From NCBI GenBank assembly GCA_951812955.1, contig OX638340.1, positions 3,328,001 through 3,392,000 of the forward strand: 64,000 bases of DNA, written 5' to 3'. This DNA comes from an uncultured Gemmatimonadota bacterium. Its GTDB lineage: Bacteria > JAAXHH01. Below, piece after piece: positions 1 through 50,053 of the stretch. A model generated the notes under the pieces. That model did not search any database. It saw nothing but the letters and a program-made list of their open reading frames with translations, and was not told the DNA's origin. Positions within the stretch are counted from its first letter, which is position 1. Every line of letters begins with the position of its first letter. The position numbers and the translations under genes are program-made.

Positions 1-692
1 CGACCACCTCGGGCGAGGAACTCATGGTGGACAACCCGGCCGACATGCCCGACGCATCGCTCATCGACAGCGTGGAGGAGCCGTTTATCCAGGCCCAGAT
101 CGTGGTACCGCAGGACTATATCGGCAACATCATGAAACTGACCCGTGACCGCCGGGGTGTATACAAGGCCATGGAATACCTCGACCCGACCCGGGTCGCC
201 CTGCAGTACGAACTGCCGCTGTCGGAGATCGTATTCGATTTCTACGACCGGCTGAAATCGATCAGTCGCGGGTATGCTTCCTTCGACTACGACTTCCTCG
301 AATACCGCGCCTCCCCGCTGGTCAGACTGAACCTGCTGCTCAACGGGGACCTGGTGGACGCCCTGTCGATCATCATCCACAAGGACAAGGCCTATGAATG
401 GGGCCGTGAGCTTTGCCAGCGGCTGCGCAAGATCATACCGCGGCAGATGTTCGAGGTCGCCGTCCAGGCCGCCATCGGAGGCAGGGTCATCGCTCGGGAG
501 TCGATCCGTCCCCTGCGCAAGAACGTCACGGCCAAGTGTTACGGCGGCGACGTCACCCGTAAGCGCAAACTGCTGGAGAGACAGAAGGAAGGCAAACGGC
601 GCATGAAGCAGGTCGGAAACGTCGAGCTGCCGCAGGAAGCCTTCCTGGCCGTGCTCGATATCCGGGGCGAAGGTGCGGCGGTAGGTGGCTGA
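1..692 (+). CDS. lepA: Elongation factor 4 (LepA), C-terminal portion; 5' end lies outside the window
   Basis: The reading frame is open to the window edge. The C-terminal sequence ...[39 protein letters not shown] is the conserved LepA tail. It is followed by lepB, matching the classical lepA-lepB operon. Confidence 0.9.
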
Positions 693-747
693 CACCCGGT
701 ACCGCGCATCATTCAGGTTTAATCTTAACGCAAGAGGATAGGGAATC

Positions 748-1455
748 TTGGCGAAAGAAAAGTCCCTGCTTAGAGAGTACCTGGAAATTGTGCTGTTCAC
801 GGTGCTCCTCTTTCTCTTCATCAGGGCGGAGGTCGTCCAGGCCTTTCGAATCCCGTCGGAGTCCATGGAAGCCACCCTGCAGGTGGGAGATTTCCTGTTG
901 GTCAACAAGTTCATCTACGGACCCGGCGTTCCATTCACCGATTTACGCATGCCCGCCTGGCGCGATCCGGAACCCGGCGATATCCTGGTATTTCCCTATC
1001 CCCGCAACCCGGCGCAGATGTTCATCAAGCGGTGTATCGCCGTCGCCGGCCAGAAGGTCGAGATCCGGGACAAGCAGGTATACGTGGACGACGCGCTGGT
1101 GGAGAATCCGCCGCACGTCAAGTTCGATGACCCGTCGGTCAGGGCGGCGACCCGCAGCACGCGGGACAACTGGGGACCCAAGATCGTACCCGCGGGATCC
1201 CTGTTCGTCATGGGCGACAACCGGGACTACAGCTCGGACAGCCGGTACTGGGGTTTCGTGGAAATGAAGGACGTCGTCGGAAACGCCTTCATCATCTACT
1301 GGTCCTGGGAACGTCACCGGGAAGACCCCGAACTGGTCTGGCAGTCGTCCAGACCCCTGGAGAGCGTTGCCTCCATAGTCTACGTACTGGGTTACAACAT
1401 CGTGCATGTCCCCTGGCGCGTGCGCTGGAATCGCGTCGGAAGATTCGTCATGTAG
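748..1455 (+). CDS. lepB: Signal peptidase I
   Basis: N-terminal transmembrane helix, then the SESMEATL catalytic-Ser box, and GDNRDYSSDSRYWGF (box D/E). It lies immediately downstream of lepA. A TTG start is likely. Confidence 0.88.
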   Translation: MAKEKSLLREYLEIVLFTVLLFLFIRAEVVQAFRIPSESMEATLQVGDFLLVNKFIYGPGVPFTDLRMPAWRDPEPGDILVFPYPRNPAQMFIKRCIAVAGQKVEIRDKQVYVDDALVENPPHVKFDDPSVRAATRSTRDNWGPKIVPAGSLFVMGDNRDYSSDSRYWGFVEMKDVVGNAFIIYWSWERHREDPELVWQSSRPLESVASIVYVLGYNIVHVPWRVRWNRVGRFVM

Positions 1456-1472
1456 ATCGGGACTCAAACACT

Positions 1473-2606
1473 TTGGCCGGTCTTTACATCCACATCCCCT
1501 TCTGTACCCGCGCCTGTCCATATTGCGATTTTTCCTTCGAGCTGCTGAAAGACGGACGGGTGGACGGTTTGCTGGCGGCCGTGGAGAAAGAAGCCGGGCG
1601 CCGTGGCCGGGAAGCGCCCTGGTCCGACCACGTCATCAACACGATCTTCCTGGGCGGAGGCACCCCCACCTGCCTTACGGATCCTCAGTTGGAACGGGTC
1701 TTCGGGATGATCCACGATCGTTTTCGCATCGATCCCGACGCCGAAATCACCGTAGAAGCCAATCCCGAAACCATCAGAGTCTCCAAGCTGCAGCGGCTTC
1801 GAGGTCTGGGTGTCAACAGGATCAGCATCGGCGTCCAGTCCTTCTCCGATGAAATCCTGCGACGTCTCGGACGAAGTCACACGGCGGACCAGGCCGCCCG
1901 CGCGATCGCCCATGCCCGTGAAACCGGTTTTGATCATATCAACATCGATCTCATGTTCGGCGCGCCTGGACAAATGCCGTCGGAATGGGCGGAAACGCTG
2001 GATCACGCGGTGGACCACGATCCGGATCACGTGTCGATCTACGGGTTGACGATAGAGCCGGGAACGGAATTCGCCCGGCTGGAGGAAGAGGGCCTGCTCG
2101 ACCTGCCGGACGATGACCGGCACGTCGGTTGTTATTTCCAGGCCCTGGACCGGCTGACCGGTGCGGGTTACCGGCATTACGAAGTTTCCAACCTGTCTAA
2201 ACCCGGCGCCGAATGCAGGCATAACGTATCTTGCTGGAACGGCGGCGACTACCTGGGACTGGGTCCGTCGGCCCATACACACTCGGGTGGAAGGAGAACG
2301 GCCAACACCCGCGACCTCGCCGGATACCTGACGGCCATGGAGGAACGGGGGGAGGCCGTTGACATGGATGAAACGCTCTCGGTGGATGAGCGTATACACG
2401 AGTATATCCTGCTGAGCCTGCGCTCCATCGAGGGCATGGACACCCTGGCCTTCCGCGACCGCTATGGCGACGATGCCATGGGGAGGCGGGAACCGGCGAT
2501 TCGAACGCTCGCCGCCGAGGGGTTGCTGTCGGAGCGCGGATCGCGGCTGTGCCTGACTCGAAAAGGGCTGGCCCTGGCGGACAGCGTCTGCGCATATCTC
2601 ATGTAG
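1473..2606 (+). CDS. hemW: Radical SAM heme chaperone HemW (HemN-like, oxygen-independent coproporphyrinogen III oxidase family)
   Basis: The YIHIPFCTRACPYCDF motif gives the CxxxCxxC radical SAM cluster. About 377 aa with a HemN C-terminal-like domain. Conserved position after lepAB. Confidence 0.85.
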   Translation: MAGLYIHIPFCTRACPYCDFSFELLKDGRVDGLLAAVEKEAGRRGREAPWSDHVINTIFLGGGTPTCLTDPQLERVFGMIHDRFRIDPDAEITVEANPETIRVSKLQRLRGLGVNRISIGVQSFSDEILRRLGRSHTADQAARAIAHARETGFDHINIDLMFGAPGQMPSEWAETLDHAVDHDPDHVSIYGLTIEPGTEFARLEEEGLLDLPDDDRHVGCYFQALDRLTGAGYRHYEVSNLSKPGAECRHNVSCWNGGDYLGLGPSAHTHSGGRRTANTRDLAGYLTAMEERGEAVDMDETLSVDERIHEYILLSLRSIEGMDTLAFRDRYGDDAMGRREPAIRTLAAEGLLSERGSRLCLTRKGLALADSVCAYLM

Positions 2607-21323: not shown

Positions 21324-23237
21324 ATGACCGACATTCAGACATTCCTCGCGCAGAACGAAGAAAAGGAATTGCTCCGCTTCAGTACGGCGGGTAGCGTGGA
21401 CGACGGCAAATCCACGCTGATCGGCCGGCTGCTGGCCGACTCGAAGAACATCTACGAGGACCACCTCGCCTCGCTCAAGAAGATGGTCCGCCAGGACGAG
21501 GCGCCCGATCTGGCCATGTTGCTGGACGGTCTCAAGGCCGAACGGGAGCAGGGCATCACCATCGACGTGGCCTACCGGTATTTTTCGACGCCACGGCGGA
21601 AGTTCATCATCGCCGACACGCCGGGCCACGAACAATACACCCGAAACATGGCGACCGGCGCGTCCAGCGCCAACCTGGCCATCGTGCTGGTCGACGCGCG
21701 ACACGGGATCCTGACGCAGACCCGGCGCCACGCTTTCATCACCTCTCTGCTGGGCATTCATCACCTCGTGGTAGCCGTGAACAAAATGGACATGGTGGAT
21801 TTCGACGAACAGATCTTCGACGACATCCGCCGGGCGTTCCTGGATTACGCCGCCAAGTTAAACGTGAGCGACATCCGCATCGTGCCGGTCAGCGCGCTCC
21901 TCGGCGACAACGTGGTGGAAAGGAGCAGCCGCACGCCATGGTATCACGGACAGACCGTGCTGGACATCCTGGAGGACGTGCAGTTCCTGACCGACCGCAA
22001 CCTGGTCGACCTGCGCTTTCCGGTGCAGTACATCATTCGACCCCGCCAGAAGGAGCGATACTACGCGGGATCGGTGTTGTCCGGCGTGGTGCGACCGGGA
22101 GACGAGGTGCTGGTTCTCCCGGGCCAGAACCGCACCCGGGTGAAGTCCGTCTCCAGCTACGACGGCGACCTGGACGAGGCCTACCCGCCCATGTCCGTTT
22201 CGCTTCAGTTGGAAGACGAAGTGGATGTAAGCCGGGGTGACATGATCGTTCATCCGAAGAACCTGCCCCACGTGGATCGGCGGTTCGAGGCGATGTTGGT
22301 CTGGATGGACGAGACCCCCATGGATCCTTCCCGTCACTACCTGATCAAGCAAACCACCCAGACCGCCCGCGCGAGCATCGACCACGTCGACTACCGCATC
22401 GACGTGGATACCCTGCACAAAGTCGGCGTTCCCCACCTTTCGCTCAATGAGATCGGCCGGGTCGCGCTGACTTCCAACCGGGCACTCTTCCACGACGCGT
22501 ACCAGAACAACCGGCTGACCGGCAGTTTCATCCTGGTGGATTATCTTTCCAACAACACCGTTGCCGCGGGCATGATCATCGATCGGCTGCCGGAAGACCG
22601 CGTGCCCATGGACGTTGACGCCGATTCCGAACCCAGGGCCTCGACTGCGCGCAGATCCAGCCTGGTGGATCCGGATCACCGTACGGAACGGTATGGGCAG
22701 AAACCGTGTACGATCTGGATCACGGGCCTGGTGGGCTCGGGAAAATCTTCCGTCACTTACGGCCTGGAGAAAGTACTGTACGAGGAAGGTTATTCGGTGG
22801 TCGTGCTGGACAGTTCGGTCGTTCGCAGCGGCCTCAGCCGCGACCTCGGCTTTTCGGCGGCGGACCAGGCGGAGAACCTCCGGCGGGTATCCGAAACCGC
22901 GCGCATGCTCAACGACACGGGACTCATCGTCCTCGCCTCTTTCATCTCTCCGAGCGAAGACGGCCGCCGCCAGGTAGCTGAACGCATTGGAACGGACCGG
23001 TACGTGGAGGTCTTCGTCGACGCGCCTATGGCCTGGTGCCGAAAGCATGACGCCACGGGGTGTTACGAGCAGTCCGACCGCGGCCTGCTGCGCAATCTCG
23101 CGGGTGTGGACTATCCCTACGAAAAGCCCCGCGATCCGGCGGTGACCGTCTCGTCTGAGACCGATCCGGTTGACCGGTCGGTCGATCGCATCGTTGCTTT
23201 GATGAAAGAAAAAGGTTACCTGCTGCCCGGGCGGTAG
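21324..23237 (+). CDS. cysN: Bifunctional sulfate adenylyltransferase subunit 1 / APS kinase (CysN-CysC fusion)
   Basis: GTPase motifs [18 protein letters not shown] in the N-terminal two-thirds. The C-terminal ~200 aa has a second APS-kinase Walker A ([11 protein letters not shown]). Start taken at ATG 21324 (MTDIQTF); the ORF-track extension back to 20697 overlaps cysD and was rejected. Confidence 0.88.
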
Positions 23238-23362
23238 TGCCTGGACCCAGTCCCCCGCCTACCCTTGTCAGACCTCGAATCCCGATCTTAGGCCGCGCTC
23301 CTGACCTCAGGCCGTGCGCCTGAAACCGTCAGGAGTCGCCCGCCTGCCGGCAGAAGTCTCCG

Positions 23363-24781
23363 TCACCACCCCGCCAGTCCCATGATCCAGTAGGCCGTCT
23401 GGGCGACGATGAAGAGCAGGATGAAGGCGATGGCCAGAGGCATAAGACCGCTGACGACGGTCCACTTCACGCTCTTGGTTTCGCGGTAGACCGTCCACAT
23501 GGTCGTGGAACACGGATTGTGCAACAGGGAAAAGAGCATGAGGCAGACGGCGGTGAGGAGCGTCCATCCCTCCTGGACCACCAGGAGTTGCCGCAGTTCC
23601 GCCATCGTATCCAGTTCAATCATCATCCCGGCGCCCGTATAGGCCATGATGATGGTCGGGACCACGATTTCGTTGGCCGGGATGGCGATGATGTAGGCCA
23701 GCAGGATCACGCCGTCCAGACCGATGGCCCGTCCCACGGGTTCCAGCCACTGTGAAACCCACACCGTCAGGCTCTGACCCCCGGCGTAAATGTTACTCAG
23801 CAGCCAGATCGCGCCGCCCGCCGGCACGGCCATGACCACCGCGCGCCAGAGGACGAATATCGTCCGGTCTATGAGCGAGGTGTACAGCACGCGAAGAATA
23901 CTGGGACGCCGGTAGGGCGGAAGTTCCAGCGTGAAACTGCTGGCTTCGCCCCGCAGGAAGGACCGGGACAGGATGGCCGACACTAGCAGGGTCGTCGCGG
24001 CGCCGATCAGGACGATCAGAACCAGGGACCCGGCCGCGGCCATGGCCGCGAAGGCCGGCGGGAAGGCAGCCGCCACGAAGAGGGTGGCCAGTATGATCAG
24101 CGTGGGCCACCTGCCGTTGCAGGGCATGAAATTATTGGTGAGGATGGCGATCAGCCGCTCACGGGGCGAATCGATGACCCGGCAGGCCACGACCCCGGCC
24201 GCGTTGCAACCCAGGCCCATACTCATGGTGAGGGCCTGCTTGCCGTGGGCGCCGGCTTTCTTGAACAGCGCGTCGACGTTGAACGCCACGCGGGGAAGGT
24301 ACCCCAGGTCCTCCAGTATGGTGAAAATGGGGAAGAATATGGCCATGGGAGGAAGCATAACGGCGATCACCCAGGCCAGTCCCCTGTAGACGCCGTGCCA
24401 GATGAACCCGGTGACCCACCAGGGCATGCCCAGGGCTTCGAACAATGCGACGCCCTGCGCGCCCAGCCAGAAAAGCCCTTCGGCCAGCATGGCGGAGGGC
24501 ACGTTCGCCCCCGAAATCGTGATCCAGAAGACGACGGCCAGGAGCAGGGCCATGAAGGGCAGTCCCCAGATCCTCGAGGTAACGATGCGGTCCAGCTTCT
24601 GGTCCCAGGGATAAGAAGCCGTTTCGCCGGTTTGAACCACCTTCCGGGTGATGGCCTCGGCGTCCTGGTAGATGGCCTCCACGATTTCGTCGCGATACGA
24701 TCCGTCCAGGTCCCTCTGCATTTCTTCCACCCGGCCCAGGATGTCCTCGCCGGTGGAAGGTGTTGCCGTCGTTTTGCTCAT
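23363..24781 (-). CDS. feoB: Ferrous iron transporter FeoB, membrane (permease) portion - a split feoB
   Basis: Polytopic membrane protein with FeoB gate-region motifs. It starts with ATG overlapping the TGA of the upstream G-domain gene (ATGA), so the split is genuine rather than a frameshift. Confidence 0.8.
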   Translation of the reverse strand: MSKTTATPSTGEDILGRVEEMQRDLDGSYRDEIVEAIYQDAEAITRKVVQTGETASYPWDQKLDRIVTSRIWGLPFMALLLAVVFWITISGANVPSAMLAEGLFWLGAQGVALFEALGMPWWVTGFIWHGVYRGLAWVIAVMLPPMAIFFPIFTILEDLGYLPRVAFNVDALFKKAGAHGKQALTMSMGLGCNAAGVVACRVIDSPRERLIAILTNNFMPCNGRWPTLIILATLFVAAAFPPAFAAMAAAGSLVLIVLIGAATTLLVSAILSRSFLRGEASSFTLELPPYRRPSILRVLYTSLIDRTIFVLWRAVVMAVPAGGAIWLLSNIYAGGQSLTVWVSQWLEPVGRAIGLDGVILLAYIIAIPANEIVVPTIIMAYTGAGMMIELDTMAELRQLLVVQEGWTLLTAVCLMLFSLLHNPCSTTMWTVYRETKSVKWTVVSGLMPLAIAFILLFIVAQTAYWIMGLAGW

Positions 24782-25587
24782 GTCGTTTGATCCCCGGCGG
24801 GTAGTTCCGCCTGGACGCCCATCCGGCTGAATTCGCCCTGTTCAAGAGCCTGGCGCACCCGGTAGTCGCCGTCGAGCAGCCTGAAGGCGATCCAGCGGGG
24901 GTTCGGAAGGTCAGGGTAGGATGCGTGCAGCATGCCCGTGATCGTATCCACGGTCCGGTCTAGTTCGTCGTTGCCCGTTATGCGCCGGGGCGCGTTCTTG
25001 ATCGTACCCTGGATCACGTCGGCGACGGTGCGCATCAACAGGCCCAGCCCCTCCTTCTTCCTGGCCGAAACCGGCACGACCGGCACGCCCAGTTCCCGTG
25101 ACAGGGCGCGGTGATCCACTGAGATCCCCTTGCGTTCGGCTTCGTCCATCAGATTCAGGCAGACTACCGTTTTTTCCGTGATCTCCAGCACCTGGAGCAC
25201 CAGGTTGAGATTGCGCTCGAGCATGGTGGCATCGACGACGGCCAACGTGCAGTCAGGCCTGCCGAAGAGGATGAAGTCCCTGGCGATCTCCTCGTCGATG
25301 GACGCCGAGAGCAGGGAGTAGGTCCCGGGCAGGTCGATCATCTTGAACCTTCTGCCGTTGAACTCGAATCCTCCCTCGGCCCGGTTCACCGTCTTTCCGG
25401 GCCAGTTCCCCGTATGCTGCTTCAGTCCGGTCAACGCGTTGAAGACCGTGCTCTTGCCCACGTTCGGGTTCCCTGCCAGGGCGATGACATAGTCCCACCG
25501 GTCCAGCGTAATACCCATCTGTACCAGGTTCTCCTGCAGCGCGCACGACGCGCAGTCGTGTCCGGGCGGTGCGGAATCGATGCTCAT
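24778..25587 (-). CDS. feoB: Ferrous iron transporter FeoB, N-terminal GTPase (G-domain + GDI-like) portion
   Basis: G1 GNPNVGKST, G3 DLPG, G4 NLMD; about 269 aa. Confidence 0.85.
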   Translation of the reverse strand: MSIDSAPPGHDCASCALQENLVQMGITLDRWDYVIALAGNPNVGKSTVFNALTGLKQHTGNWPGKTVNRAEGGFEFNGRRFKMIDLPGTYSLLSASIDEEIARDFILFGRPDCTLAVVDATMLERNLNLVLQVLEITEKTVVCLNLMDEAERKGISVDHRALSRELGVPVVPVSARKKEGLGLLMRTVADVIQGTIKNAPRRITGNDELDRTVDTITGMLHASYPDLPNPRWIAFRLLDGDYRVRQALEQGEFSRMGVQAELPAGDQTT

Positions 25588-26600
25588 ACGGTGATCTCCC
25601 GTTCCTGCCGCGTTCCTTGGTCAATTAAGATCAGGTCGGACTGTTCCCGGCGCAGCGCGATCATCGTACCGCGCACCCGGTAAGCCGTGGGATCGCTGAA
25701 GGCGCTTTGCATGACGCGCTCGACACGGACGCCGGGCGTGAGGCCCAGGTCCAGGAACCTTCGGCGGGTCAAGCCCTGGCAGGCCGGTGACAGCGCGACG
25801 ACCCGGCCCTGCTCGCCGTGTTTCAGCGCCGTGAGCGGCACGCCTGACGGTTCGACCCGGTCAATGGGCGCCTCCCGCACGGATATGTTTGCCGCGACGA
25901 CCGGAGCCAGCACGTGCTCGTTTTCCGGTGTGCCTATGACCACCCGTACGGATGAGATGTCCAGGATCGTGATCACCATGCCGGGATGGAGATCCTCGGC
26001 GATGATCTGGGCGTACACTTCCGGTGGTTCGTCCTCGATATGCACGATCTGCGCCGGAACGCCCGCCGGCCATTCGACGAGTTTCTGGCTCTTGATCTCC
26101 TTCATGTCGCCCGCGGCGTTCGGGATCGGATCTCCCTGGGGATCGAAGGCGGGGTGGCCCATGTCGGCGTCCATCTTGTCGACCTGCGCCTCGCTCACCG
26201 TGTGTTCCAACTGGTGGGCATGGGCATGTATTTTCTCCCGGGGCACGGAGGTCTCGTCGGCCAGGTACCGCTCGAACAGGCGATGCGCCCTGACGATCTG
26301 GAGCGCCCAGCGATGGCCGGCGGCCGTGAGGCGCATCCCCTGGCCCGTCACGGCTACCAGATCCATCTGCGCCATTCGGTCGACCAGGATCAGCGTGTGA
26401 CCGGTCGAAGTGCCCAGGGTATTGGAAAGGGATTCCACGGACGCCGGCCGTCCGTCGTGCTGGAACTGGTGCAGATGGGCCAGGGCGTCCTCGACGGCCT
26501 GGCGGGATTGCACCCACCTCCTGCGCCGGTAGCGCCAGTACAGTCCGTATTGGGGCAGGAAGAGCACCCCGAGGGCAATCAGCACGATGATACCGGTCAT
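25584..26600 (-). CDS. DtxR/MntR-family metalloregulator paralog with an N-terminal transmembrane helix and two C-terminal FeoA/SH3-like domains
   Basis: Starts with a hydrophobic helix (MTGIIVLIALGVLFLPQYGLYW RYRRRRW). A winged-helix/DtxR-like region follows (LILVDRMAQMDLV...RLTAAGHRWALQIVRAHRLFERYL), with metal-site residues in HAHAHQLEH. Two FeoA-like segments follow (...VITILDISSVRVV... and ...GEQGRVVAL...LGLTPGVRVERV...). Overlapping stop/start (ATGA) with the flanking genes. Confidence 0.6.
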   Translation of the reverse strand: MTGIIVLIALGVLFLPQYGLYWRYRRRRWVQSRQAVEDALAHLHQFQHDGRPASVESLSNTLGTSTGHTLILVDRMAQMDLVAVTGQGMRLTAAGHRWALQIVRAHRLFERYLADETSVPREKIHAHAHQLEHTVSEAQVDKMDADMGHPAFDPQGDPIPNAAGDMKEIKSQKLVEWPAGVPAQIVHIEDEPPEVYAQIIAEDLHPGMVITILDISSVRVVIGTPENEHVLAPVVAANISVREAPIDRVEPSGVPLTALKHGEQGRVVALSPACQGLTRRRFLDLGLTPGVRVERVMQSAFSDPTAYRVRGTMIALRREQSDLILIDQGTRQEREITV

Positions 26601-27334
26601 GAACCTGCCCGCCCATCGTTTTTCGTTTCCTCGGCCGGTACGCTTTCGACCAGGACGCTGCGGGCGACCTGGTGCCCGACGTGTTGTTCCTCACCGCCAA
26701 CACGCAGAAACATGGGTCCATCGAAGGGCTCTTTGCTCAGTACTTCCACGACGTTTTCCGGCCGGAGGCCGAGTTTCGCAAGATAACGGAGCAGGGCCGG
26801 ATCCGTGTCTTTCACGCGGCGAACAATCACAGTGCGACCGGGTTCCATGTCGGACAGCCTGTCGTGGTTGGTACTGGCAATGGATAGATCTTTCGCCGGT
26901 ATGGGCGAGCCGTGAGGGTCCGTGGTCGGGTGCCCCAGCATGGCATCGATCTTGTCCTCGAATTCTTCGGAGATCACGTGTTCGAGACGCTCCGCTTCCG
27001 CGTCCACCTGGTCCCACGTAAATCCAAGCGCTTCAGCCATGTACACCTCCAGCAACCGGTGATGGCGAATGATCTCGAGCGCGATCTTTCTTCCGGCGTC
27101 GGTCAGCCTGATCGCCTGGTAGGGCCGGTGTTCGACCAGGCCCGACTCCGACAGCCTCTTCATCATGTTGGTGACGGAGGCGGCCGATACGCCCATCCGG
27201 TCCGCTATGGCATTGGTCGACGCGGCTACTGCGTTCTCCTGCAACTTGTAGATGGCCTTCAGGTAATCTTCCGTGGCGGGCGTGGGCATGAGTATATCCG
27301 AAAACCGGTCTCGACTTTGCATGGAGTGTGCCAT
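26597..27334 (-). CDS. DtxR/IdeR-family iron/manganese-dependent transcriptional repressor with a C-terminal FeoA/SH3-like domain
   Basis: EDYLKAIYKL, the HTH region (IADRMGVSAASVTNMMKRL) and the dimerisation/metal-site region (RHHRLLEVYM...DAEAERLEHV) match DtxR/IdeR. The real start may be the internal Met (MPTPATEDYLK, about 27289). Confidence 0.8.
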   Translation of the reverse strand: MAHSMQSRDRFSDILMPTPATEDYLKAIYKLQENAVAASTNAIADRMGVSAASVTNMMKRLSESGLVEHRPYQAIRLTDAGRKIALEIIRHHRLLEVYMAEALGFTWDQVDAEAERLEHVISEEFEDKIDAMLGHPTTDPHGSPIPAKDLSIASTNHDRLSDMEPGRTVIVRRVKDTDPALLRYLAKLGLRPENVVEVLSKEPFDGPMFLRVGGEEQHVGHQVARSVLVESVPAEETKNDGRAGS

Positions 27335-27341
27335 CGATTTT

Positions 27342-27360
27342 TTAGTTGAGACTAAATATA
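27342..27360. promoter_or_regulatory. Candidate DtxR/IdeR-type operator (AT-rich imperfect palindrome TTAGTTGAGACTAAATATA) upstream of the dtxR-feoB operon
   Basis: Lies in the AT-rich region 27335-27500, just upstream of the first gene of the minus-strand operon. About 11/19 match to TTAGGTTAGCCTAACCTAA; the half-sites TTAGT and ACTAA are inverted. Confidence 0.3.
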
Positions 27361-27546
27361 TAGTTAAATAATATATGTGTCAATAATTAGATTTGAAAAA
27401 AGTCTAAGCCGGTCCGGTCGGCGCATGGCAAATCCATCCGCGGAACATGCGTCGAGCCGAAACAATACCCTTGTTTCAGGTGGAATACCGCCCTTATATT
27501 CGGATTGCCGAAGCGCAATAAACCGATTTTATGCGACCCTGGAGCC

Positions 27547-27933
27547 ATGATGGCCGGCCATATCGTCCTCGTCGTGGTGGACGACCTGTTTTTCTCTTCG
27601 AAGATCGGTGAGACCATACGTCAACTGGGCGGCGAACCACGTTTCGCGGCGGAAGCGGGCGAGATCCCGGATGATCCCGAATGCGGTCCGCCGTCCGCGA
27701 TCATCGTGGACCTCGATCTCACGCGGACCGACGCCGTGGACCTGGTATCTCTCCTGAAAGACCGTGAAGCGACCAGGGATATACCGATGATGGCGTACGG
27801 CCGGCATACGCGGCCCGAAGCCTTCGTGCGCGCCCGGGAGGCGGGCTGCGAACGGGCCGTGCCGAGGTCGGAGTTCGTAAAGAGGCTGCCGGAATTCATC
27901 GAATCCTGTTGGCGGCATGGCCGCGACGCATGA
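27547..27933 (+). CDS. Single-domain response regulator receiver (CheY-like) protein, possibly atypical
   Basis: The VLVVVDD acidic pocket and the IIVDLDL phospho-acceptor region are present, but the conserved Lys is not obvious. Start assumed at MMAGH. Confidence 0.55.
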   Translation: MMAGHIVLVVVDDLFFSSKIGETIRQLGGEPRFAAEAGEIPDDPECGPPSAIIVDLDLTRTDAVDLVSLLKDREATRDIPMMAYGRHTRPEAFVRAREAGCERAVPRSEFVKRLPEFIESCWRHGRDA

Positions 27934-37816: not shown

Positions 37817-40759
37817 ATGACGAATGTCTACCTGTTCTGCAATAACCGGATCTCGAAAACCGGGCCGGGCCGTGTGGCCAGGTCGATGCTCGTCGCAGTG
37901 ATCGCCGTCGCGGTCCTGGTGGGCGCGGCCGCGGAGGCCGGCGCACAGCAGTCCGTGGGCCGCATATCCGGAACGATAGTCGACGCGGAGACCGGCGATT
38001 CCCTGATCGGCGCGACGGTGATGGTGGTGGGACTCGAACTTGGCGCGATGGCCGATCTTGAAGGCGCCTTTCTCATCCGAAACGTCCCCGCCGGCCGGCA
38101 CACCATCCTGGTATCCATGATCGGGTACGGGCAGAAGCGGGTCACCGAGATCCAGGTCGACCCCGGACAGGTGAGTCGAATAGACATCGCCGTCGAGCAG
38201 GAACTTCTCGTGGCGGACGTGGTTGAGGTGACGGCCCGGGCCCTGGAAAACACGGAAGCGGCGCTTCTGAAGCGCCGTCAAAACGCCCTTTCCATCAGTG
38301 ACGCCATCAGCGCGGAGGATATCTCGCGGGGCGCACAGGGCGACGTGGCCGCGGCCATGACCCGCGTCACCGGCGCGTCGGTGGTGGACGGCAAGTACGT
38401 CTACATTCGAGGTCTGGGCGAACGGTACAGCACCGCGCAGTTGAACGGCACGACCTTGCCGAGTACCGATCCCAACAGCCAGTCGGTGCAGATGGATATC
38501 TTCGCGACGAACCTGCTGGACAACATCACCACGGAGAAGTCCTTTACGCCGGACAAACCGGGCAACTTCACCGGCGGCAGCGTCAACGTCAAGACCAAGT
38601 CGCTTCCCGAGTCCTTCACCATGTCTTTCTCCACGTCCACGAAATACAACTCCCAGTCTTCCTTCAAGGACATGTTGAGTTACGACGGCGGTGAATACGA
38701 TTTCCTGGGCTTCGACGACGGCACCCGGGATATACCCCTGCCCCTTCAGAATCCCGAGTTGGATATACCCAGCATTACCAGTGCGTTCCGGGACCCGGAA
38801 GCCGCCCAGTTGCTGGATCTCTATTCCAAGTCGTTCGCAGATAAGTCGATGACGCCGACCACAATAAAAGGCGGACTCGGTCAGAGCTACTCATTTTCGA
38901 TGGGAAACCAGACGACGGTTTTCGACCGCCCGTTCGGGATGTTGGGAAGCGTGAGTTACAATCGAAACATTTCGGCGTACGAGAACGGCGTTTCCGGTAT
39001 ATGGAAACGCGTGTCCAGGGAATCCGAGGGGCTGAACAGAGAGCGGTTCGCCACGGACATGAGCGGTTCCGAGGAGGTGCTCTGGGGCGGACTGTTAAAC
39101 GCCACCTACCAACCGAGCATCACGCACGAAATCGGCGCCAACGTGCTATACAATCGCAGCGGTGAGAAGCTGTCCAGGTTTCAAACCGGCGCCTGGCCTT
39201 CCTCCCTGCCCGGCGACAACGTTCGGTACGAGACCCGCGTGCTGTCCTTCATCGAGCGTGAAATGCGTTCCCTGCAGTTCCGCGGCAAACATGTCCTTCC
39301 GTCCGTATCCAACATGGAAATCGAGTGGACCGGCGCTTTCATCAGGTCTACGCAGGACGAACCGGACCTGCGCTACTTCACCAACGAGTTCCGGACGGTC
39401 GACGCGGCCGGCGAAGGAACTCCGGAAGTGGACAGCTATACAATCGCGCTCTCGAACTACGCGGCACCGACGCGATACTTCAGGAATCTGGAAGAATCGA
39501 ACAGGGACTTCAGGCTGGACCTGACGCTGCCTTTCTCCCAGTGGTCCGGACAAACCGCCCGCCTCAAGGTAGGCGGCGCATACCTGGACAAGGACCACAC
39601 CTTCCGCGAGAGACGCTTTTCCTTCTTCCAGGACGACTTGCAGTACAGGAACGATCCATCAGTCTTCTTTTCCTCCGATCGCACCGGGATACTGCCGGCC
39701 GAGCTCCAAACCACCCCCGGCTTTACCCGGTTCGGGAATTTCGTGTCCGAGGATTCCAAACTCAGAAACAATTACGACGGTGATCAGCAAATCGGCGCCG
39801 GTTACCTGATGCTGGACCTGCCGCTCAGCAGGCAACTCAAGGTCGTTGGCGGCGTCCGCTACGAGTCCACCCTGCTGGACGTGGTCAGCCACGACGATTT
39901 GCTTTCGCCAGGCAGCATGGACGAGAAGGACTGGCTACCGTCGATGAACGTGGTGTACCAGGTCGTGGACGACATGAATGTACGAGGCGCTTTCAGCCGT
40001 ACCCTGGCCAGACCTTCGTTCCGCGAACTTGCGCCGTTCGCTTCCTTCCTCTTCGTCGGCGACTACACTTTCGTCGGCAACAGCGAGTTGAAGCGAACCC
40101 TTATCGAGAATTACGATCTCCGCTGGGAGTGGTTTTCACGGCCCGGCGAGATATACGCCCTCAGCTATTTTTACAAGAAGTTCGAAAACCCGATCGAGCG
40201 CGTGATTGTAACCACGAACGGCGAAATCCAGTTTCAGAATGTCGACAATGCATATGTTACGGGCGTGGAAATGGAATTCCGGAAGCAGCTCGACCAGGTC
40301 CATCCGTTTTTGAGCAACTTCCAGATCGGCGGAAATCTCTCCCTGGTCAGGTCCCAGGTGGATATCGCGCAGTCGGAACTCGCCATTATTCGAGCTCTCG
40401 ATCCAACCGCCGGGGACTCCCGAAAATTGCAGGGCCAGTCACCCTACGTGGTAAATATCGATGCCATGTACGACAACCTCGATACCGGGACCCTGGTCAG
40501 CGTTCATTACAACGTGTTCGGCGAAAGACTTGCCGAGGTCAGCACGGGCGGAACGCCGAACGCCTTCGAGCAGCCCGCGGGCATGCTCGATTTCACGGGC
40601 TCGCAGCGGCTCGGAGACCGGGTGACGCTGAAGTTTTCGGCCAAGAACCTCCTCGATCCCGACATCAAGAAAGTCCATCCCTTCAACAACGCGGAGTTCA
40701 TCCGCAGCCTCTACAAGCGGGGAAGAACGTTTACCCTGGGTCTCTCATACGGGATATAG
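37817..40759 (+). CDS. TonB-dependent outer membrane receptor (SusC/RagA-like) with N-terminal carboxypeptidase-regulatory-like domain
   Basis: Signal peptide, then a CarbopepD_reg-like beta-sandwich (GRISGTIVDAETGDSLIGATVMVVG...AGRHTILVSMIGY). Plug region (ISDAISAEDISRG...TRVTGAS...YIRGLGERYS). 980 aa total, consistent with a 22-strand barrel. Confidence 0.85.
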   Translation: MTNVYLFCNNRISKTGPGRVARSMLVAVIAVAVLVGAAAEAGAQQSVGRISGTIVDAETGDSLIGATVMVVGLELGAMADLEGAFLIRNVPAGRHTILVSMIGYGQKRVTEIQVDPGQVSRIDIAVEQELLVADVVEVTARALENTEAALLKRRQNALSISDAISAEDISRGAQGDVAAAMTRVTGASVVDGKYVYIRGLGERYSTAQLNGTTLPSTDPNSQSVQMDIFATNLLDNITTEKSFTPDKPGNFTGGSVNVKTKSLPESFTMSFSTSTKYNSQSSFKDMLSYDGGEYDFLGFDDGTRDIPLPLQNPELDIPSITSAFRDPEAAQLLDLYSKSFADKSMTPTTIKGGLGQSYSFSMGNQTTVFDRPFGMLGSVSYNRNISAYENGVSGIWKRVSRESEGLNRERFATDMSGSEEVLWGGLLNATYQPSITHEIGANVLYNRSGEKLSRFQTGAWPSSLPGDNVRYETRVLSFIEREMRSLQFRGKHVLPSVSNMEIEWTGAFIRSTQDEPDLRYFTNEFRTVDAAGEGTPEVDSYTIALSNYAAPTRYFRNLEESNRDFRLDLTLPFSQWSGQTARLKVGGAYLDKDHTFRERRFSFFQDDLQYRNDPSVFFSSDRTGILPAELQTTPGFTRFGNFVSEDSKLRNNYDGDQQIGAGYLMLDLPLSRQLKVVGGVRYESTLLDVVSHDDLLSPGSMDEKDWLPSMNVVYQVVDDMNVRGAFSRTLARPSFRELAPFASFLFVGDYTFVGNSELKRTLIENYDLRWEWFSRPGEIYALSYFYKKFENPIERVIVTTNGEIQFQNVDNAYVTGVEMEFRKQLDQVHPFLSNFQIGGNLSLVRSQVDIAQSELAIIRALDPTAGDSRKLQGQSPYVVNIDAMYDNLDTGTLVSVHYNVFGERLAEVSTGGTPNAFEQPAGMLDFTGSQRLGDRVTLKFSAKNLLDPDIKKVHPFNNAEFIRSLYKRGRTFTLGLSYGI

Positions 40760-40831
40760 CGCAGAATGACGACTTGCGGGGACGCTCGACCTTTTCAATC
40801 TCAACTGCCAGCTCAATTAAGGAGGAGTAGT

Positions 40832-43800
40832 ATGTTTCGGCGGAATGCCATCGCTGCAATTTTGGTATCGTTGTTTTTACCAGTCCTCGCAGAAGCACAA
40901 TCCAACCCGGTCGTTTCAGTCACAGACTCGGACATCGTGGGTAACGTGACCTTCACGTCGAACAACACGTACCTGCTCTCGGGCCTGGTGTTCGTGGAGG
41001 ATGGCGAGACGCTTACGATCGAACCCGGCACGGTGATCAAGGCGCGTCCGGCGGACGCCGACGGTGTGGTCTCGGCATTGATTGTAGCGCGCGGCGGGAA
41101 GATCTTTGCTGACGGTACGGCGATGGATCCCATCATCTTCACGGCCGAGGCCGACAATGTGGACGATCCGGACGACATCCTGCTCACCTCGGAAGCGGCC
41201 TCGCGGGGGTTGTGGGGCGGCGTGATCATCCTGGGCAGGGCATCGATCAACGCGGCCACGGGCATGAACAACATAGAAGGCATAGACACGACTGAGCCGC
41301 GGGGCATCTACGGCGGCGGCTCGTTCCCCGACGATAACGACAACTCGGGCGTGTTTCGCTACGTGTCGATCCGCCACGGCGGCGCGCGGATCGGAGCGGA
41401 CAACGAGATCAATGGGCTGACGATGGGCGGCGTGGGGCGTGGCACGACGATAGAGCACGTGGAGGTGTTCTACAACCAGGACGACGGGTTCGAGTGGTTC
41501 GGGGGCACGGTGAATACGCGTTACCTGGTGGCGGCCTTTGCCGGCGACGACAGCTTCGACTACGACGAGGGCTTCCGCGGTGAGCACCAGTTCTGGTTCT
41601 CTATCCAGGATCCGGCCGTAGGCGACCACGCCGGCGAGCACGACGGCGGCACCAAGCCGGAGGATGGCAGGCCGTACGCCAGTCCCACGATCCTGAACGC
41701 CACGTACATTGGGCGGGGCGCTTCCTCGATGGGGGGCAAGGCGAATAACGCCCTGATCTTCCGCGACAACGCGGGGGGCATGTATTTCAACAGCATCTTC
41801 ACCGAGTTCCAGGGCCGGATGCTGTCGATCGAGGACCTCGAGGGCAATGCGGGCACGGACAGCCGCGCGCGTCTTGAGGCCGGCGACCTTGCGTTCCAAA
41901 ACAACATCCTGGGTGCCTTCGGCGCGGGCAACACGCCATCGCAACTCGCCGCCGAGTCCGAGGATCACACGGCCATGGTGCTTTCAGATCCCGGGAACAT
42001 GATCCGAATCGTAGATCCACAATTGCAGGGCATCAACTGGAACCGCAACCGGGGGCTGGACCCACGACCCGGTACCAACAGTCCTGCCTGGGATGCGAGC
42101 CAGCTCAAGGAAGAACCCCGGAACACCGGGTTCTTTACGGACGTCGATTACGCAGGGGCATTCGGTACGGAAAACTGGGCGGCGGACTGGTCGGCCCTCG
42201 CGGACCTGGGCTATTTCAGCACCGCACCTCCACCCGAGCCGCCGGAGCCCGGGGTTGTTACTGTCACAGACTCGGACATCGTGGGTAACGTGACCTTCAC
42301 GTCGAACAACACGTACCTGCTCTCGGGCCTGGTGTTCGTGGAGGATGGCGAGACGCTTACGATCGAACCCGGCACGGTGATCAAGGCGCGTCCGGCGGAC
42401 GCCGACGGCGTGGTCTCGGCATTGATTGTAGCGCGCGGCGGGAAGATCTTTGCCGACGGTACGGCGATGGATCCCATCATCTTCACGGCCGAGGCCGACA
42501 ATGTGGACGATCCGGACGACATCCTGCTCACCTCGGAAGCGGCCTCGCGGGGGTTGTGGGGCGGCGTGATCATCCTGGGCAGGGCATCGATCAACGCGGC
42601 CACGGGCATGAACAACATAGAAGGCATAGACACGACTGAGCCGCGGGGCATCTACGGCGGCGGCTCGTTCCCCGACGATAACGACAACTCGGGCGTGTTT
42701 CGCTACGTGTCGATCCGCCACGGCGGCGCGCGGATCGGAGCGGACAACGAGATCAATGGGCTGACGATGGGCGGCGTGGGGCGTGGCACGACGATAGAGC
42801 ACGTGGAGGTGTTCTACAACCAGGACGACGGGTTCGAGTGGTTCGGGGGCACGGTGAATACGCGTTACCTGGTGGCGGCCTTTGCCGGCGACGACAGCTT
42901 CGACTACGACGAGGGCTTCCGCGGTGAGCACCAGTTCTGGTTCTCTATCCAGGATCCGGCCGTAGGCGACCACGCCGGCGAGCACGACGGCGGCACCAAG
43001 CCGGAGGATGGCAGGCCGTACGCCAGTCCCACGATCCTGAACGCCACGTACATTGGGCGGGGCGCTTCCTCGATGGGGGGCAAGGCGAATAACGCCCTGA
43101 TCTTCCGCGACAACGCGGGGGGCATGTATTTCAACAGCATCTTCACCGAGTTCCAGGGCCGGATGCTGTCGATCGAGGACCTCGAGGGCAATGCGGGCAC
43201 GGACAGCCGCGCGCGTCTTGAGGCCGGCGACCTTGCGTTCCAAAACAACATCCTGGGTGCCTTCGGCGCGGGCAACACGCCATCGCAACTCGCCGCCGAG
43301 TCCGAGGATCACACGGCCATGGTGCTTTCAGATCCCGGGAACATGATCCGAATCGTAGATCCACAATTGCAGGGCATCAACTGGAACCGCAACCGGGGGC
43401 TGGACCCACGACCCGGTACCAACAGTCCTGCCTGGGATGCGAGCCAGCTCAAGGAAGAACCCCGGAACACCGGGTTCTTTACGGACGTCGATTACGCAGG
43501 GGCATTCGGTACGGAAAACTGGGCGGCGGACTGGTCGGCCCTCGCGGACCTGGGCTATTTCAGCACCGCACCTCCACCCGAGCCGCCGGAGCCCGGGGAA
43601 CCGGAAGAAGAAGCGCCGGACGCGTTCAGCCTGTCGCAGAACAGTCCGAACCCCTTCGGCATGACCACGAATATAGAGTACGCAGTATCTTCGACGAGCC
43701 ACATACTGATCGAGGTGTACAACATTCGGGGCCAGCGGGTAGCCATGGTCGTTAACGATATCAGGCTTCCGGGGCAGTACTCGGAGATATGGGACGCTCA

Positions 43801-43897
43801 GCACCTTTCAAGCGGCGTATATTTCTACCGCTTCGAGGCTACGGCGGATGGGCGGACCGCCCACGTTTTTAACAGGAAGATGACGCTTCTGAAGTGA
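40832..43897 (+). CDS. Large secreted cell-surface protein with two near-identical 448-aa repeats (beta-helix-like) and a C-terminal T9SS type A sorting domain
   Basis: AAGGAGG RBS and a signal peptide (MFRRNAIAAILVSLFLPVLAEAQ). The repeat body is rich in GxxGG/DDGFEWFGG/GDDSFDYDEGF beta-solenoid-like motifs. The C-terminus (SPNPFGMTTNIEY...GVYFYRFEATADG...KMTLLK) is a por secretion CTD. Probably co-transcribed with the upstream TonB receptor (72-bp gap). Confidence 0.75.
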   Translation: MFRRNAIAAILVSLFLPVLAEAQSNPVVSVTDSDIVGNVTFTSNNTYLLSGLVFVEDGETLTIEPGTVIKARPADADGVVSALIVARGGKIFADGTAMDPIIFTAEADNVDDPDDILLTSEAASRGLWGGVIILGRASINAATGMNNIEGIDTTEPRGIYGGGSFPDDNDNSGVFRYVSIRHGGARIGADNEINGLTMGGVGRGTTIEHVEVFYNQDDGFEWFGGTVNTRYLVAAFAGDDSFDYDEGFRGEHQFWFSIQDPAVGDHAGEHDGGTKPEDGRPYASPTILNATYIGRGASSMGGKANNALIFRDNAGGMYFNSIFTEFQGRMLSIEDLEGNAGTDSRARLEAGDLAFQNNILGAFGAGNTPSQLAAESEDHTAMVLSDPGNMIRIVDPQLQGINWNRNRGLDPRPGTNSPAWDASQLKEEPRNTGFFTDVDYAGAFGTENWAADWSALADLGYFSTAPPPEPPEPGVVTVTDSDIVGNVTFTSNNTYLLSGLVFVEDGETLTIEPGTVIKARPADADGVVSALIVARGGKIFADGTAMDPIIFTAEADNVDDPDDILLTSEAASRGLWGGVIILGRASINAATGMNNIEGIDTTEPRGIYGGGSFPDDNDNSGVFRYVSIRHGGARIGADNEINGLTMGGVGRGTTIEHVEVFYNQDDGFEWFGGTVNTRYLVAAFAGDDSFDYDEGFRGEHQFWFSIQDPAVGDHAGEHDGGTKPEDGRPYASPTILNATYIGRGASSMGGKANNALIFRDNAGGMYFNSIFTEFQGRMLSIEDLEGNAGTDSRARLEAGDLAFQNNILGAFGAGNTPSQLAAESEDHTAMVLSDPGNMIRIVDPQLQGINWNRNRGLDPRPGTNSPAWDASQLKEEPRNTGFFTDVDYAGAFGTENWAADWSALADLGYFSTAPPPEPPEPGEPEEEAPDAFSLSQNSPNPFGMTTNIEYAVSSTSHILIEVYNIRGQRVAMVVNDIRLPGQYSEIWDAQHLSSGVYFYRFEATADGRTAHVFNRKMTLLK
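40919..43606 (+). repeat. Intragenic tandem duplication, 2 x 1344 bp, near 100% identical (a few SNPs)
   Basis: Identical text from gtcacagactcggacatcgtgggtaacgtgacc at 40919 and again at 42263; both copies end at ...gagccgccggagcccgggg. The antisense ORF-track entries are duplicated accordingly (for example the 124-aa and 73-aa ORFs recur exactly 1344 bp apart). Confidence 0.95.
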
Positions 43898-49764: not shown

Positions 49765-50053
49765 ACGGATCGGTTCGGCCGATTGCGGATGTATTCGACG
49801 TTCCGACCGGCGCCGGACACGATGCGTGCAGTATCCGAGCCGTCCTTTACGATCTCCGACCCGGACACGGCCCGTTCCCAACCCGCCGCCCCGGGAACGC
49901 GCTAAGGCATCGGTCCGCGTAAGCCGGCCGCTGGCCGTCATCTGGGTGTCCCTTCAGAATTTTCTATATCTAATCATTGACACGTGTATATTATAACTAT
50001 ATATTTAGCCTAGTCTAAAAATAGAGAGGTTATTGCACCGGTTATAAACACAA

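Follow-up and report, generated by a model that had tools for sequence, protein, structure and literature searches.

A membrane-anchored DtxR paralogue with a FeoA domain as a possible subunit of a two-piece FeoB importer

How is a metal importer put together and controlled when its FeoB is encoded in two pieces, and when its FeoA domain belongs to a membrane-anchored relative of a repressor? Feo is the main ferrous-iron importer of bacteria. The question is raised by a stretch of 64,000 nucleotides from an uncultured Gemmatimonadota bacterium (GenBank assembly GCA_951812955.1, contig OX638340.1, positions 3,328,001 to 3,392,000), here called the window. Four minus-strand open reading frames (ORFs) span 23363-27334 of the window and are named g1, g2, g3, and g4 in the order of transcription (Table 1). 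We put at roughly 0.6 the probability that our explanation is right as a whole. By this explanation, g1 to g4 form one operon read from a promoter at 27383-27355 and encode a metal-regulated, Feo-type importer of unusual subunit make-up. A bolder idea goes further. The second protein, g2, would be a DtxR-family transcription factor turned membrane-bound allosteric subunit, which senses Fe2+ or Mn2+ and switches the two-piece FeoB through its FeoA domain within seconds. We hold this idea tentatively, at somewhat under even odds.

The case for a single operon is simple. A first-pass annotation of the window had described four genes overlapping at every junction, and the ORFs lie at the coordinates it gave. 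All three junctions read ATGA, so that each stop codon overlaps the next start codon. A promoter scan of 23100-27600 placed its top site upstream of g1, with 11 of 12 matches to the sigma-70 consensus, and returned no comparable promoter inside the four-gene block. A single strong promoter, together with ATGA at all junctions, indicates one operon.

What kind of protein is g2? Its only Pfam matches are Fe_dep_repr_C (PF02742, 75.3 bits, residues 92-161) and FeoA (PF04023, 71.8 bits, residues 254-326). An AlphaFold2 model was made from 21 sequences and has a mean predicted local distance difference test (pLDDT) score of 82.7. The model runs from an N-terminal helix through a helix over a basic stretch, alpha-1, a winged helix-turn-helix, and dimerisation helices to two SH3-like barrels. 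Foldseek matched it to three-domain structures of MntR, IdeR, SloR, and ScaR, with a target-normalised TM-score of up to 0.85 (MntR 5zr6). The two regulators of the operon, g1 and g2, are 31% identical over 180 residues. As modelled, g2 is a complete DtxR fold with a membrane anchor in front and an additional, canonical FeoA domain at the back.

The anchor had been predicted in the first-pass annotation as a transmembrane helix at the start of g2, and the prediction holds across the family. The N-terminal segment has a 19-residue Kyte-Doolittle mean of 1.96. A 19-residue mean of at least 1.6 is conserved across phyla, in 95% of 111 g2 homologues. The median net charge around the anchor in these homologues is 0 before it and +3 after it, where g2 itself has a basic stretch. 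Pro16 and Gly19 are nearly invariant, and residues 2-13 are helical in the model. No other start codon stands between the g2 start at 26600 and the in-frame stop upstream of it. The predicted topology has the N-terminus outside and the C-terminus inside, with about 2 residues in the periplasm. Since g2 would have essentially no periplasmic part, any sensing by it would have to be cytosolic.

The same annotation had seen two FeoA-like domains at the other end of g2. One of them stands. The second barrel is above the PF04023 cut-off of 23 bits, and its sequence matches in the PDB include the FeoA domain of B. fragilis (7r7b) and stand-alone FeoA proteins. The first barrel, with model strands at residues 182-243, reaches 18.1 bits with the FeoA profile, below the cut-off, and corresponds to the third domain of the DtxR family. 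The FeoA of g2 is also unlike the usual FeoA, which is a free cytosolic protein of about 75-85 aa. Here it is a domain of an anchored protein of 338 aa.

Does g2 still read DNA? We aligned 82 g2-family and 63 g1-family sequences from the same loci and compared their conservation. In g1, no part of the protein is more conserved than the base-contact positions of its recognition helix, whose mean entropy is 0.64 bits. The equivalent positions of g2 (65-71) have a mean entropy of 2.85 bits and are as variable as linkers. With the threshold relaxed to E <= 10, the profile of the DNA-binding domain, PF01325, still gave no match to the winged helix of g2. This helix region has a median net charge of +2 in g1 and of 0 in g2. 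At the other end of the proteins the order is reversed. The two barrels of g2 are conserved, at 1.35 and 1.26 bits, versus 2.00 bits for the single SH3 domain of g1, which is the least conserved part of that protein.

The metal ligands of g2 are kept. E37, H106, E110, H125, and H133 are invariant, E132 is found in 81 of 82 sequences, and D38 is found in 94%. We take H106, E110, H125, E132, and H133 to be the counterparts of DtxR H79, E83, H98, E105, and H106. Each of H187, E189, D190, E191, and P192 in the first barrel is 100% conserved; in DtxR, the SH3 domain supplies ligands to an ancillary metal site. The FeoA motif G276-x-x-R279-R280-R281-x-x-D284-x-G286 is invariant in the second barrel, as are R310, L316, R317, and Q320. 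Judged by this pattern of selection, g2 has retained metal sensing together with its SH3/FeoA surfaces, and its reading of specific DNA is no longer under constraint. The pattern lends weight to the earlier suggestion that the paralogue was recruited as a transporter subunit or a membrane-localised sensor.

If g2 works with FeoB, it may stand in for FeoA. A hidden Markov model (HMM) built from the FeoA domain of g2, and also the sequence of E. coli FeoA, were run against all six-frame ORFs of the window and the related loci. Beyond genes of the g1 and g2 types, this search found no stand-alone feoA in the window, nor within about 5 kb in 77 related loci. In Bacteroides, a natural fusion places FeoA at the N-terminus of the FeoB G-domain, and FeoA stabilises GTP-bound FeoB (PMC8980893). 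The gene order here, with the FeoA domain followed by the G-domain, mirrors this fusion. From the domain match, the gene order, and the local search we infer, with good support, that g2 takes the place of FeoA. This agrees with the first reading of the locus, which had assigned the FeoA function to a membrane-tethered homologue of a metalloregulator.

One locus from the Acidobacteria (L065) carries both arrangements. A canonical feoA of 94 aa and a feoB paralogue (1-2002, minus strand) lie 3 kb upstream of its g2-type module, which has no small feoA of its own. The presence of both side by side indicates that the two kinds of Feo system are distinct and coexist.

We then turn to the partner of g2. 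FeoB had been described as split into a G-domain gene and a permease gene. The two genes are there, and the point of the cut differs from that description. The g3 protein matches FeoB_N (PF02421) with 207.7 bits and has the G-motifs GNPNVGKS, DLPG, NLMD, and SAR. The g4 protein matches Gate with 95.3 bits in two stretches and FeoB_C with 50 bits, and its gate motifs, GLGCNAAG and HNPCST, contain cysteine. Both proteins also match FeoB_Cyto (PF17910), a helical-domain profile of 90 positions. Positions 3-46 of this profile match g3 residues 207-250, and positions 48-90 match g4 residues 8-50; the helical part of g4 comprises residues 1-70 (24572-24781). The feoB model TIGR00437 is shared out in the same way, with positions 1-154 in g3 and 210-594 in g4, and neither half reaches the cut-off of 315.65 bits. 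On the intact FeoB of 730 aa from locus L002, g3 aligns to residues 13-264 and g4 to residues 277-729, so that the two are collinear with it. This alignment and the halves of PF17910 indicate that the gene is cut inside the helical domain, and not between the G-domain and the permease. We infer with good support, from these matches, that g3 and g4 would reassemble into FeoB by completing the helical domain.

The g3 protein also has an N-terminal extension with a CxxC motif. Its consensus is H-C-E-(S/T)-C-P-A-(F/Y/H), and it is present in nearly all of the 77 aligned FeoB proteins associated with g2, split or whole. The exceptions are L056, which is without the motif, and L005, where the chosen start codon cuts the region off. 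The canonical feoB paralogue of L065 lacks the extension. Speculatively, the motif may bind metal, or the SH3/FeoA domains may dock on it. Cys274 of g2 was considered as a ligand partner for this CxxC and was rejected because a cysteine is found there in only 40% of sequences.

How widespread is the arrangement? Homologues were collected by a word-indexed search, an exhaustive search of representatives at 50% identity, and a scan of one genome per species. The word-indexed search gave more than 100 full-length g2 homologues with 47-97% identity. At E <= 1e-30 there are about 335 clusters at 50% identity, nearly all of 300-370 aa. The scan found at least 551 encoded g2 relatives. The best 80 of these come from Gemmatimonadota, Zixibacteria, Armatimonadota, Chloroflexota (mostly Anaerolineae), Acidobacteriota, Planctomycetota, Calditrichota, and Verrucomicrobia. 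For 77 non-redundant loci the available DNA reaches far enough to show the genes that follow g2. In all 77, from at least seven phyla, the g2 homologue lies directly upstream of the G-part of FeoB, and the membrane part comes next. FeoB is split in 69 of them and whole in 8, where it is 726-781 aa long. The first-pass annotation had proposed a check of related genomes for the split feoB and the anchored DtxR-FeoA protein, and the arrangement is conserved in them.

The two pieces have much the same size wherever the split occurs. Homologues of g3 are 264-293 aa long in 68 of 69 loci, with one outlier of 243, and homologues of g4 are 462-497 aa long in 61 of 62 complete ORFs, with one outlier of 321. 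These tight lengths place the fission at one and the same loop. In 24 of the 69 loci g3 and g4 overlap by 4 nt, and in 55 their junction is 20 nt or less. Recurrence of the split at one point in so many loci argues that it is not an assembly error and that it is real and old. The conserved core of the system is formed by g2 and FeoB. In a rough neighbour-joining tree of g2, the loci with a whole FeoB fall at four or more positions. Either one fission with later re-fusions or repeated fission would account for this.

Further breaks within g4 were seen in three loci. In L001/L006 (the same record, OY843748.1; 7877-9318) and in L027 (6932-8381), the g4 gene is broken again into two overlapping ORFs. 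These breaks, unlike the g3/g4 split, are probably frameshift errors or recent pseudogenisation.

The first gene of the operon encodes a more conventional DtxR-family protein. It had been called a canonical DtxR/IdeR repressor with an SH3/FeoA tail. The three domains of the family are found by Pfam: Fe_dep_repress (PF01325, 70.9 bits against a cut-off of 26, residues 18-74), Fe_dep_repr_C (PF02742, 107.8 bits), and FeoA (PF04023, 68.5 bits), which here is the SH3-like third domain. The assignment to IdeR did not stand. The best NCBIfam match of g1 is the Thermus-type MntR model, with 223 bits against a cut-off of 350, while the actinobacterial DtxR model gives 115.7 bits against 290. No NCBIfam equivalog cut-off is reached by g1 or g2. 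Judging by the profile scores, g1 is closer to the MntR/DR2539 type than to DtxR/IdeR.

The details of g1 fit this type. In our alignment, its metal ligands H92, E96, D111, E115, E118, and H119 stand at DtxR H79, E83, H98, C102, E105, and H106. Asp23 stands at the position of DtxR Met10 and Glu115 at that of Cys102, which makes g1 a hard-ligand variant. Lys26 of its DYLK motif is 100% conserved in the 63 relatives. A lysine likewise stands at the position of MntR Glu11 in the repressor DR2539, which responds to Mn(II) as well as to Fe(II) (PMC3327659). The recognition-helix consensus of g1, P-A-S-V-T-G-M, is close to the VAPASVTGM turn-helix of DR2539, as taken from a PDB alignment and a preprint. 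DR2539 and the three-domain MntR (PDB 8pvt, 5zr4/5zr6) share with g1 the three domains, the DYLK motif, an (A/P)ASVT(G/N)M recognition helix, and a palindromic operator at the own promoter, the operator of g1 being a candidate. The start of g1 is ambiguous. In-frame ATG codons are present at 27334, 27322, and 27289, and a clear Shine-Dalgarno sequence precedes none of them. The alignment with most homologues begins only near residue 16, which points to a leader of about 55-60 nt rather than about 13 nt.

Where would g1 bind? An AT-rich palindrome upstream of the operon had been likened to a DtxR box, and it makes a good candidate for an operator. The palindrome, TTAGTTGAGACTAA at 27342-27355, is the core of a TTTAG-N6-CTAAA sequence at 27341-27356. 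With at most one mismatch, this pattern has two matches in the window against 0.23 expected. Exact copies number 49 and lie in 45 of 81 related loci (739 kb), across phyla. These sites follow a -10-like sequence, and in most loci the g1 match comes a few to about 60 nt after them; in loci without an upstream g1, they are 36-85 nt upstream of the g2 start. An operator so conserved across phyla fits the recognition helix of g1, which is conserved as well, and not the variable helix of g2. With good support from these patterns, metal-loaded g1 would repress the operon, and a porin gene described below, at this palindrome. The pattern TTTAG-N6-CTAAA could serve as a cross-phylum operator for regulon prediction in uncultured lineages.

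Three Anaerolineales loci have two operators exactly 21 bp apart (L039 1622-1658, L075 2769-2805, and L076 1104-1140). One lies over the -35/spacer region and the other after the -10 hexamer. This spacing suggests cooperative binding of two repressor dimers.

The second operator copy of the window lies at 50004-50019, before the porin gene. The product of this gene matches the NCBIfam model NF033652 with 140.4 bits against a cut-off of 90, and its homologues are called LbtU family siderophore porin in some sources. Sequence searches of Pfam and the PDB returned nothing for it. The promoter at this site and the feo promoter are nearly identical. Both read TTGACA-17-TATATT, with a common TCTAAT-N2 just upstream. 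The porin gene and the feo operon probably belong to one regulon, and an operator before a gene of the LbtU family indicates a regulon for iron acquisition.

The TCTAAT element just upstream of the -35 hexamer is seen in the window at 27384-27410 (minus strand) and 49960-49976 (plus strand), and in the Gemmatimonadota relatives L005-L009. In the feo promoter it is part of an inverted repeat, TTAGA-N11-TCTAA. The element might act as a further regulator site or in the manner of an UP element.

Which metal does the transporter carry? The probable co-regulation with the LbtU-family porin favours ferrous iron; manganese is possible. FeoB homologues that transport manganese are known (PMC8749426).

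We propose the following mechanism. Metal-loaded g1 would bind TTTAG-N6-CTAAA over the -10 hexamer and the transcription start, shutting off its own operon and the porin gene. The soluble GTPase piece, g3, and the permease piece, g4, would reassemble by completing the helical domain, and the overlapping stop and start codons would keep their synthesis coupled. The g2 protein would be held at the inner face of the membrane by its N-terminal helix, with its metal ligands and dimerisation domain kept. Its C-terminal FeoA domain would dock onto the G-protein of FeoB in place of a free FeoA. Metal bound to the DtxR core of g2 would shift the SH3/FeoA domains, as it does in DtxR. The activity of FeoB would thereby be tuned directly to the cytosolic metal level, most probably by feedback inhibition. 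The conserved ligands and surfaces of g2 give moderate support to this last part, in which g2 senses cytosolic metal through its DtxR core and relays it to FeoB through its FeoA domain. If g2 is an allosteric subunit, the CxxC extension of g3 might provide a docking site or a shared metal site.

Several points weigh against this proposal. The exact operator is missing in 36 of the 81 loci, and in 19 of the 81 no g1-type gene is found within 5 kb. In the model, g2 still has a well-folded winged helix, which keeps R75 and the wing residues L91 and T92, so that non-specific or lineage-specific DNA binding by it is possible. The search for feoA covered local DNA only, and its HMM missed even the SH3 domain of g1; a free feoA elsewhere in the genome is possible. 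No fusion of g2 to FeoB occurs among the listed homologues. Contact of g2 with g3 or g4 is deduced from sequence features, and the direction of post-translational control is a guess. Finally, where DtxR has Met10 and Cys102, both regulators have Asp and Glu/His. Hard ligands of this type are seen in manganese sensors, and the cargo could therefore be Mn2+.

Could g2 instead be a transcription factor? Tethered to the membrane in the manner of ToxR or CadC, or released by proteolysis, it would regulate feo or other genes at operators that differ between lineages. Databases annotate the g2 family as a transcriptional regulator, its metal ligands are intact, and the structure prediction gives, with high confidence, the whole DtxR fold with its winged helix. 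We nevertheless consider this role unlikely. The base-contact equivalents are the least conserved part of g2, while the adjacent operator is conserved across phyla and matches the helix of g1. The absence of a PF01325 match and the drop in winged-helix charge from that of g1 also speak against it, and the winged helix would sit just about 10 residues from the membrane anchor. A role at DNA leaves the extra FeoA domain and the strict adjacency to FeoB unexplained. A different role, in which g2 controls g1, would make use of the dimerisation domain that the two proteins have in common. In a heterodimer, g1 would be held at the membrane, and the status of the transporter would be passed on to transcription. 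Mlc-PtsG and MalT-MalK are analogies for such membrane sequestration of a regulator. The genes g1 and g2 are adjacent in most loci, with a g1-type gene no more than 5 kb away in 62 of 81. The remaining loci include L002, L013, and L014 of the Armatimonadota, which have a whole FeoB, and the FeoA domain is conserved beyond what binding of g1 alone would require. These facts make sequestration of g1 quite improbable.

An equally doubtful proposal is that g2 is a metal acceptor or chaperone, whose DtxR sites take Fe2+ or Mn2+ from the FeoB pore and pass it on without any sensing. It would give a use to several invariant His, Glu, and Asp sites at the membrane beside a transporter, and the CxxC extension of g3 could belong to the relay. 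Against it, the metal sites are regulatory in every characterised DtxR-family member. Last, the split FeoB could be a frameshift or a pseudogene, and the g2 helix a mis-called start. A published survey considered that NFeoB proteins lacking a transmembrane region might stem from sequencing errors (PMC8980893), and the additional g4 breaks of L001/L006 and L027 do look like frameshifts. The split between g3 and g4 is another matter. Of 77 independent loci, which come from several phyla, 69 have it, with tight lengths and coupled start codons, and a frameshift was rejected on this recurrence. The g2 start follows an upstream in-frame stop, and its hydrophobic N-terminus is conserved. Artefact or decay is thus scarcely credible and is effectively refuted by the comparative data.

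How does the proposed importer, with g2 as its sensor subunit, compare with known Feo systems? Canonical FeoAB(C), as in E. coli and Vibrio cholerae, has the same G-domain, helical domain, and Gate/FeoB_C permease. It likewise has a FeoA-type SH3-like domain encoded immediately upstream and repression by a metal-dependent regulator at the promoter. The differences are in the parts. In the canonical system FeoB is a single polypeptide and FeoA is a free protein of about 75 aa, whereas here FeoB is two polypeptides and FeoA is a domain of the 338-aa g2. In addition, g3 has the CxxC extension, the repressor is of the DtxR type rather than the Fur type, and the operon has no FeoC. FeoC of the gammaproteobacterial Feo systems is a winged-helix protein of about 80 aa, often with a Cys-rich cluster site, that works on FeoB and not on DNA. 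By analogy only, the orphaned winged helix of g2 could serve in a protein contact comparable to that of FeoC; in g2, unlike FeoC, the winged helix belongs to a DtxR core.

The FeoA-FeoB fusions of Bacteroides fragilis and Porphyromonas gingivalis place FeoA directly N-terminal to the G-domain, as in the order of g2 and g3 (PMC8980893). The stabilisation of GTP-bound FeoB by FeoA in those fusions is also the role that we propose for the FeoA domain of g2. In the fusions FeoA is covalently part of FeoB and comes without a sensor, while g2 is a separate protein with a DtxR core and an anchor. Regulators of the DR2539/MntR type have the same fold and the same metal-ligand positions as g2. To these g2 adds a transmembrane helix and a second SH3/FeoA domain, and it differs from them in failing the DNA-binding-domain profile and in its unconstrained base-reading positions.

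A survey of Feo architectures removed those that combine DtxR and FeoA and suspected sequencing errors in NFeoB without a transmembrane region (PMC8980893). A paper on Feo evolution makes no mention of DtxR, the split, or Chloroflexi (PMC8749426). We found no description of an anchored DtxR-FeoA protein with a split FeoB in a literature search that covered subscription papers poorly, so that an earlier mention is possible. In databases, g2 homologues are named "DtxR family Mn-dependent transcriptional regulator" or "FeoA domain-containing protein". The present analysis corrects the annotation of g2 as an Mn-dependent transcriptional regulator.

The system bears on two standing questions about Feo, namely the role of FeoA and the control of FeoB after protein synthesis. 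The g2 family, with about 335 clusters and at least 551 genome hits in at least seven phyla, leads to the hypothesis that FeoA domains carry a metal-status signal to the G-protein. It further illustrates how the paralogue of a repressor can give up reading DNA and come to serve as a subunit of a transporter. If the proposal is true, g2 would be the first case of a DtxR-family member with a protein, and not DNA, as its target, and the locus would be a natural experiment showing that FeoA is an adaptor that carries regulatory signals to FeoB. A natural two-piece FeoB could, in addition, ease biochemical and structural work on the coupling of G-domain and permease.

Table 1. Coordinates of the feo operon, its parts, and the second operator site in the window
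Feature	Coordinates	Strand	Length	Remarks
g1	26597-27334	-	245 aa	Cytosolic three-domain DtxR-family metalloregulator, probable repressor at the operator
g2	25584-26600	-	338 aa	Membrane-anchored DtxR paralogue with extra FeoA domain
g3	24778-25587	-	269 aa	Soluble part of FeoB: G-domain and first half of helical domain
g4	23363-24781	-	472 aa	Membrane part of FeoB: second half of helical domain and permease
Sigma-70-type promoter	27355-27383	-		TTGACA (27383-27378), 17-nt spacer, TATATT (27360-27355)
Operator candidate TTTAGTCTCAACTAAA (minus-strand writing)	27341-27356	.		TTTAG-N6-CTAAA; overlaps last two -10 bases and expected transcription start
g2 predicted transmembrane anchor, residues 3-22	26535-26594	-		Followed by RYRRRR (residues 23-28)
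g2 helix alpha-1 and degenerate winged helix-turn-helix, residues 34-92	26325-26501	-		Fold kept in model
g2 dimerisation/metal-binding domain and Pro-rich DP(Q/H)GDPIP linker, residues 93-162	26115-26324	-		PF02742
g2 first SH3-like barrel, residues 179-245	25866-26066	-		DtxR family third domain; motif I-V-H187-I-E189-D190-E191-P192
g2 second SH3-like barrel, canonical FeoA domain, residues 254-327	25620-25841	-		Motif G-x-x-RRR-x-x-D-x-G
g3 N-terminal extension, residues 1-33	25489-25587	-		H10-D-C12-A-S-C15 (CxxC), before P-loop
Second promoter and operator copy	49977-50019	+		TTGACA, 17 nt, TATATT, overlapping TTTAGCCTAGTCTAAA at 50004-50019
LbtU-family siderophore porin gene	50054-51223	+	389 aa	Outer membrane; signal peptide

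The operon is flanked on one side by convergent cysD and cysN/C-like genes. On the other side, the genes run divergently and encode a receiver-like protein, a PolX/PHP polymerase, and endonuclease III. Metagenome-assembled genomes of Gemmatimonadota are the closest public relatives, with a g2 identity of 89%, and a 3.9-Mb relative has the same neighbours. The divergent protein of 142 aa (27505-27933, plus strand) gave only a weak receiver-domain match of 19.5 bits, below the cut-off. At its position, the 3.9-Mb relative has a gene for 128 aa without a Pfam hit.

Elsewhere in the window, a tandem duplication lies at 40909-43596 on the plus strand. It has a period of 1344 bp and 99.4% identity over at least 892 nt, and the end at 43596 assumes two full copies. 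The duplication falls inside an ORF of 1043 aa (40766-43897) that ends in a Por_Secre_tail sorting domain of the type IX secretion system (T9SS) and closely follows a TonB-dependent receptor gene (37817-40759). The repeat is due either to recent duplication of an internal domain or to faulty assembly.

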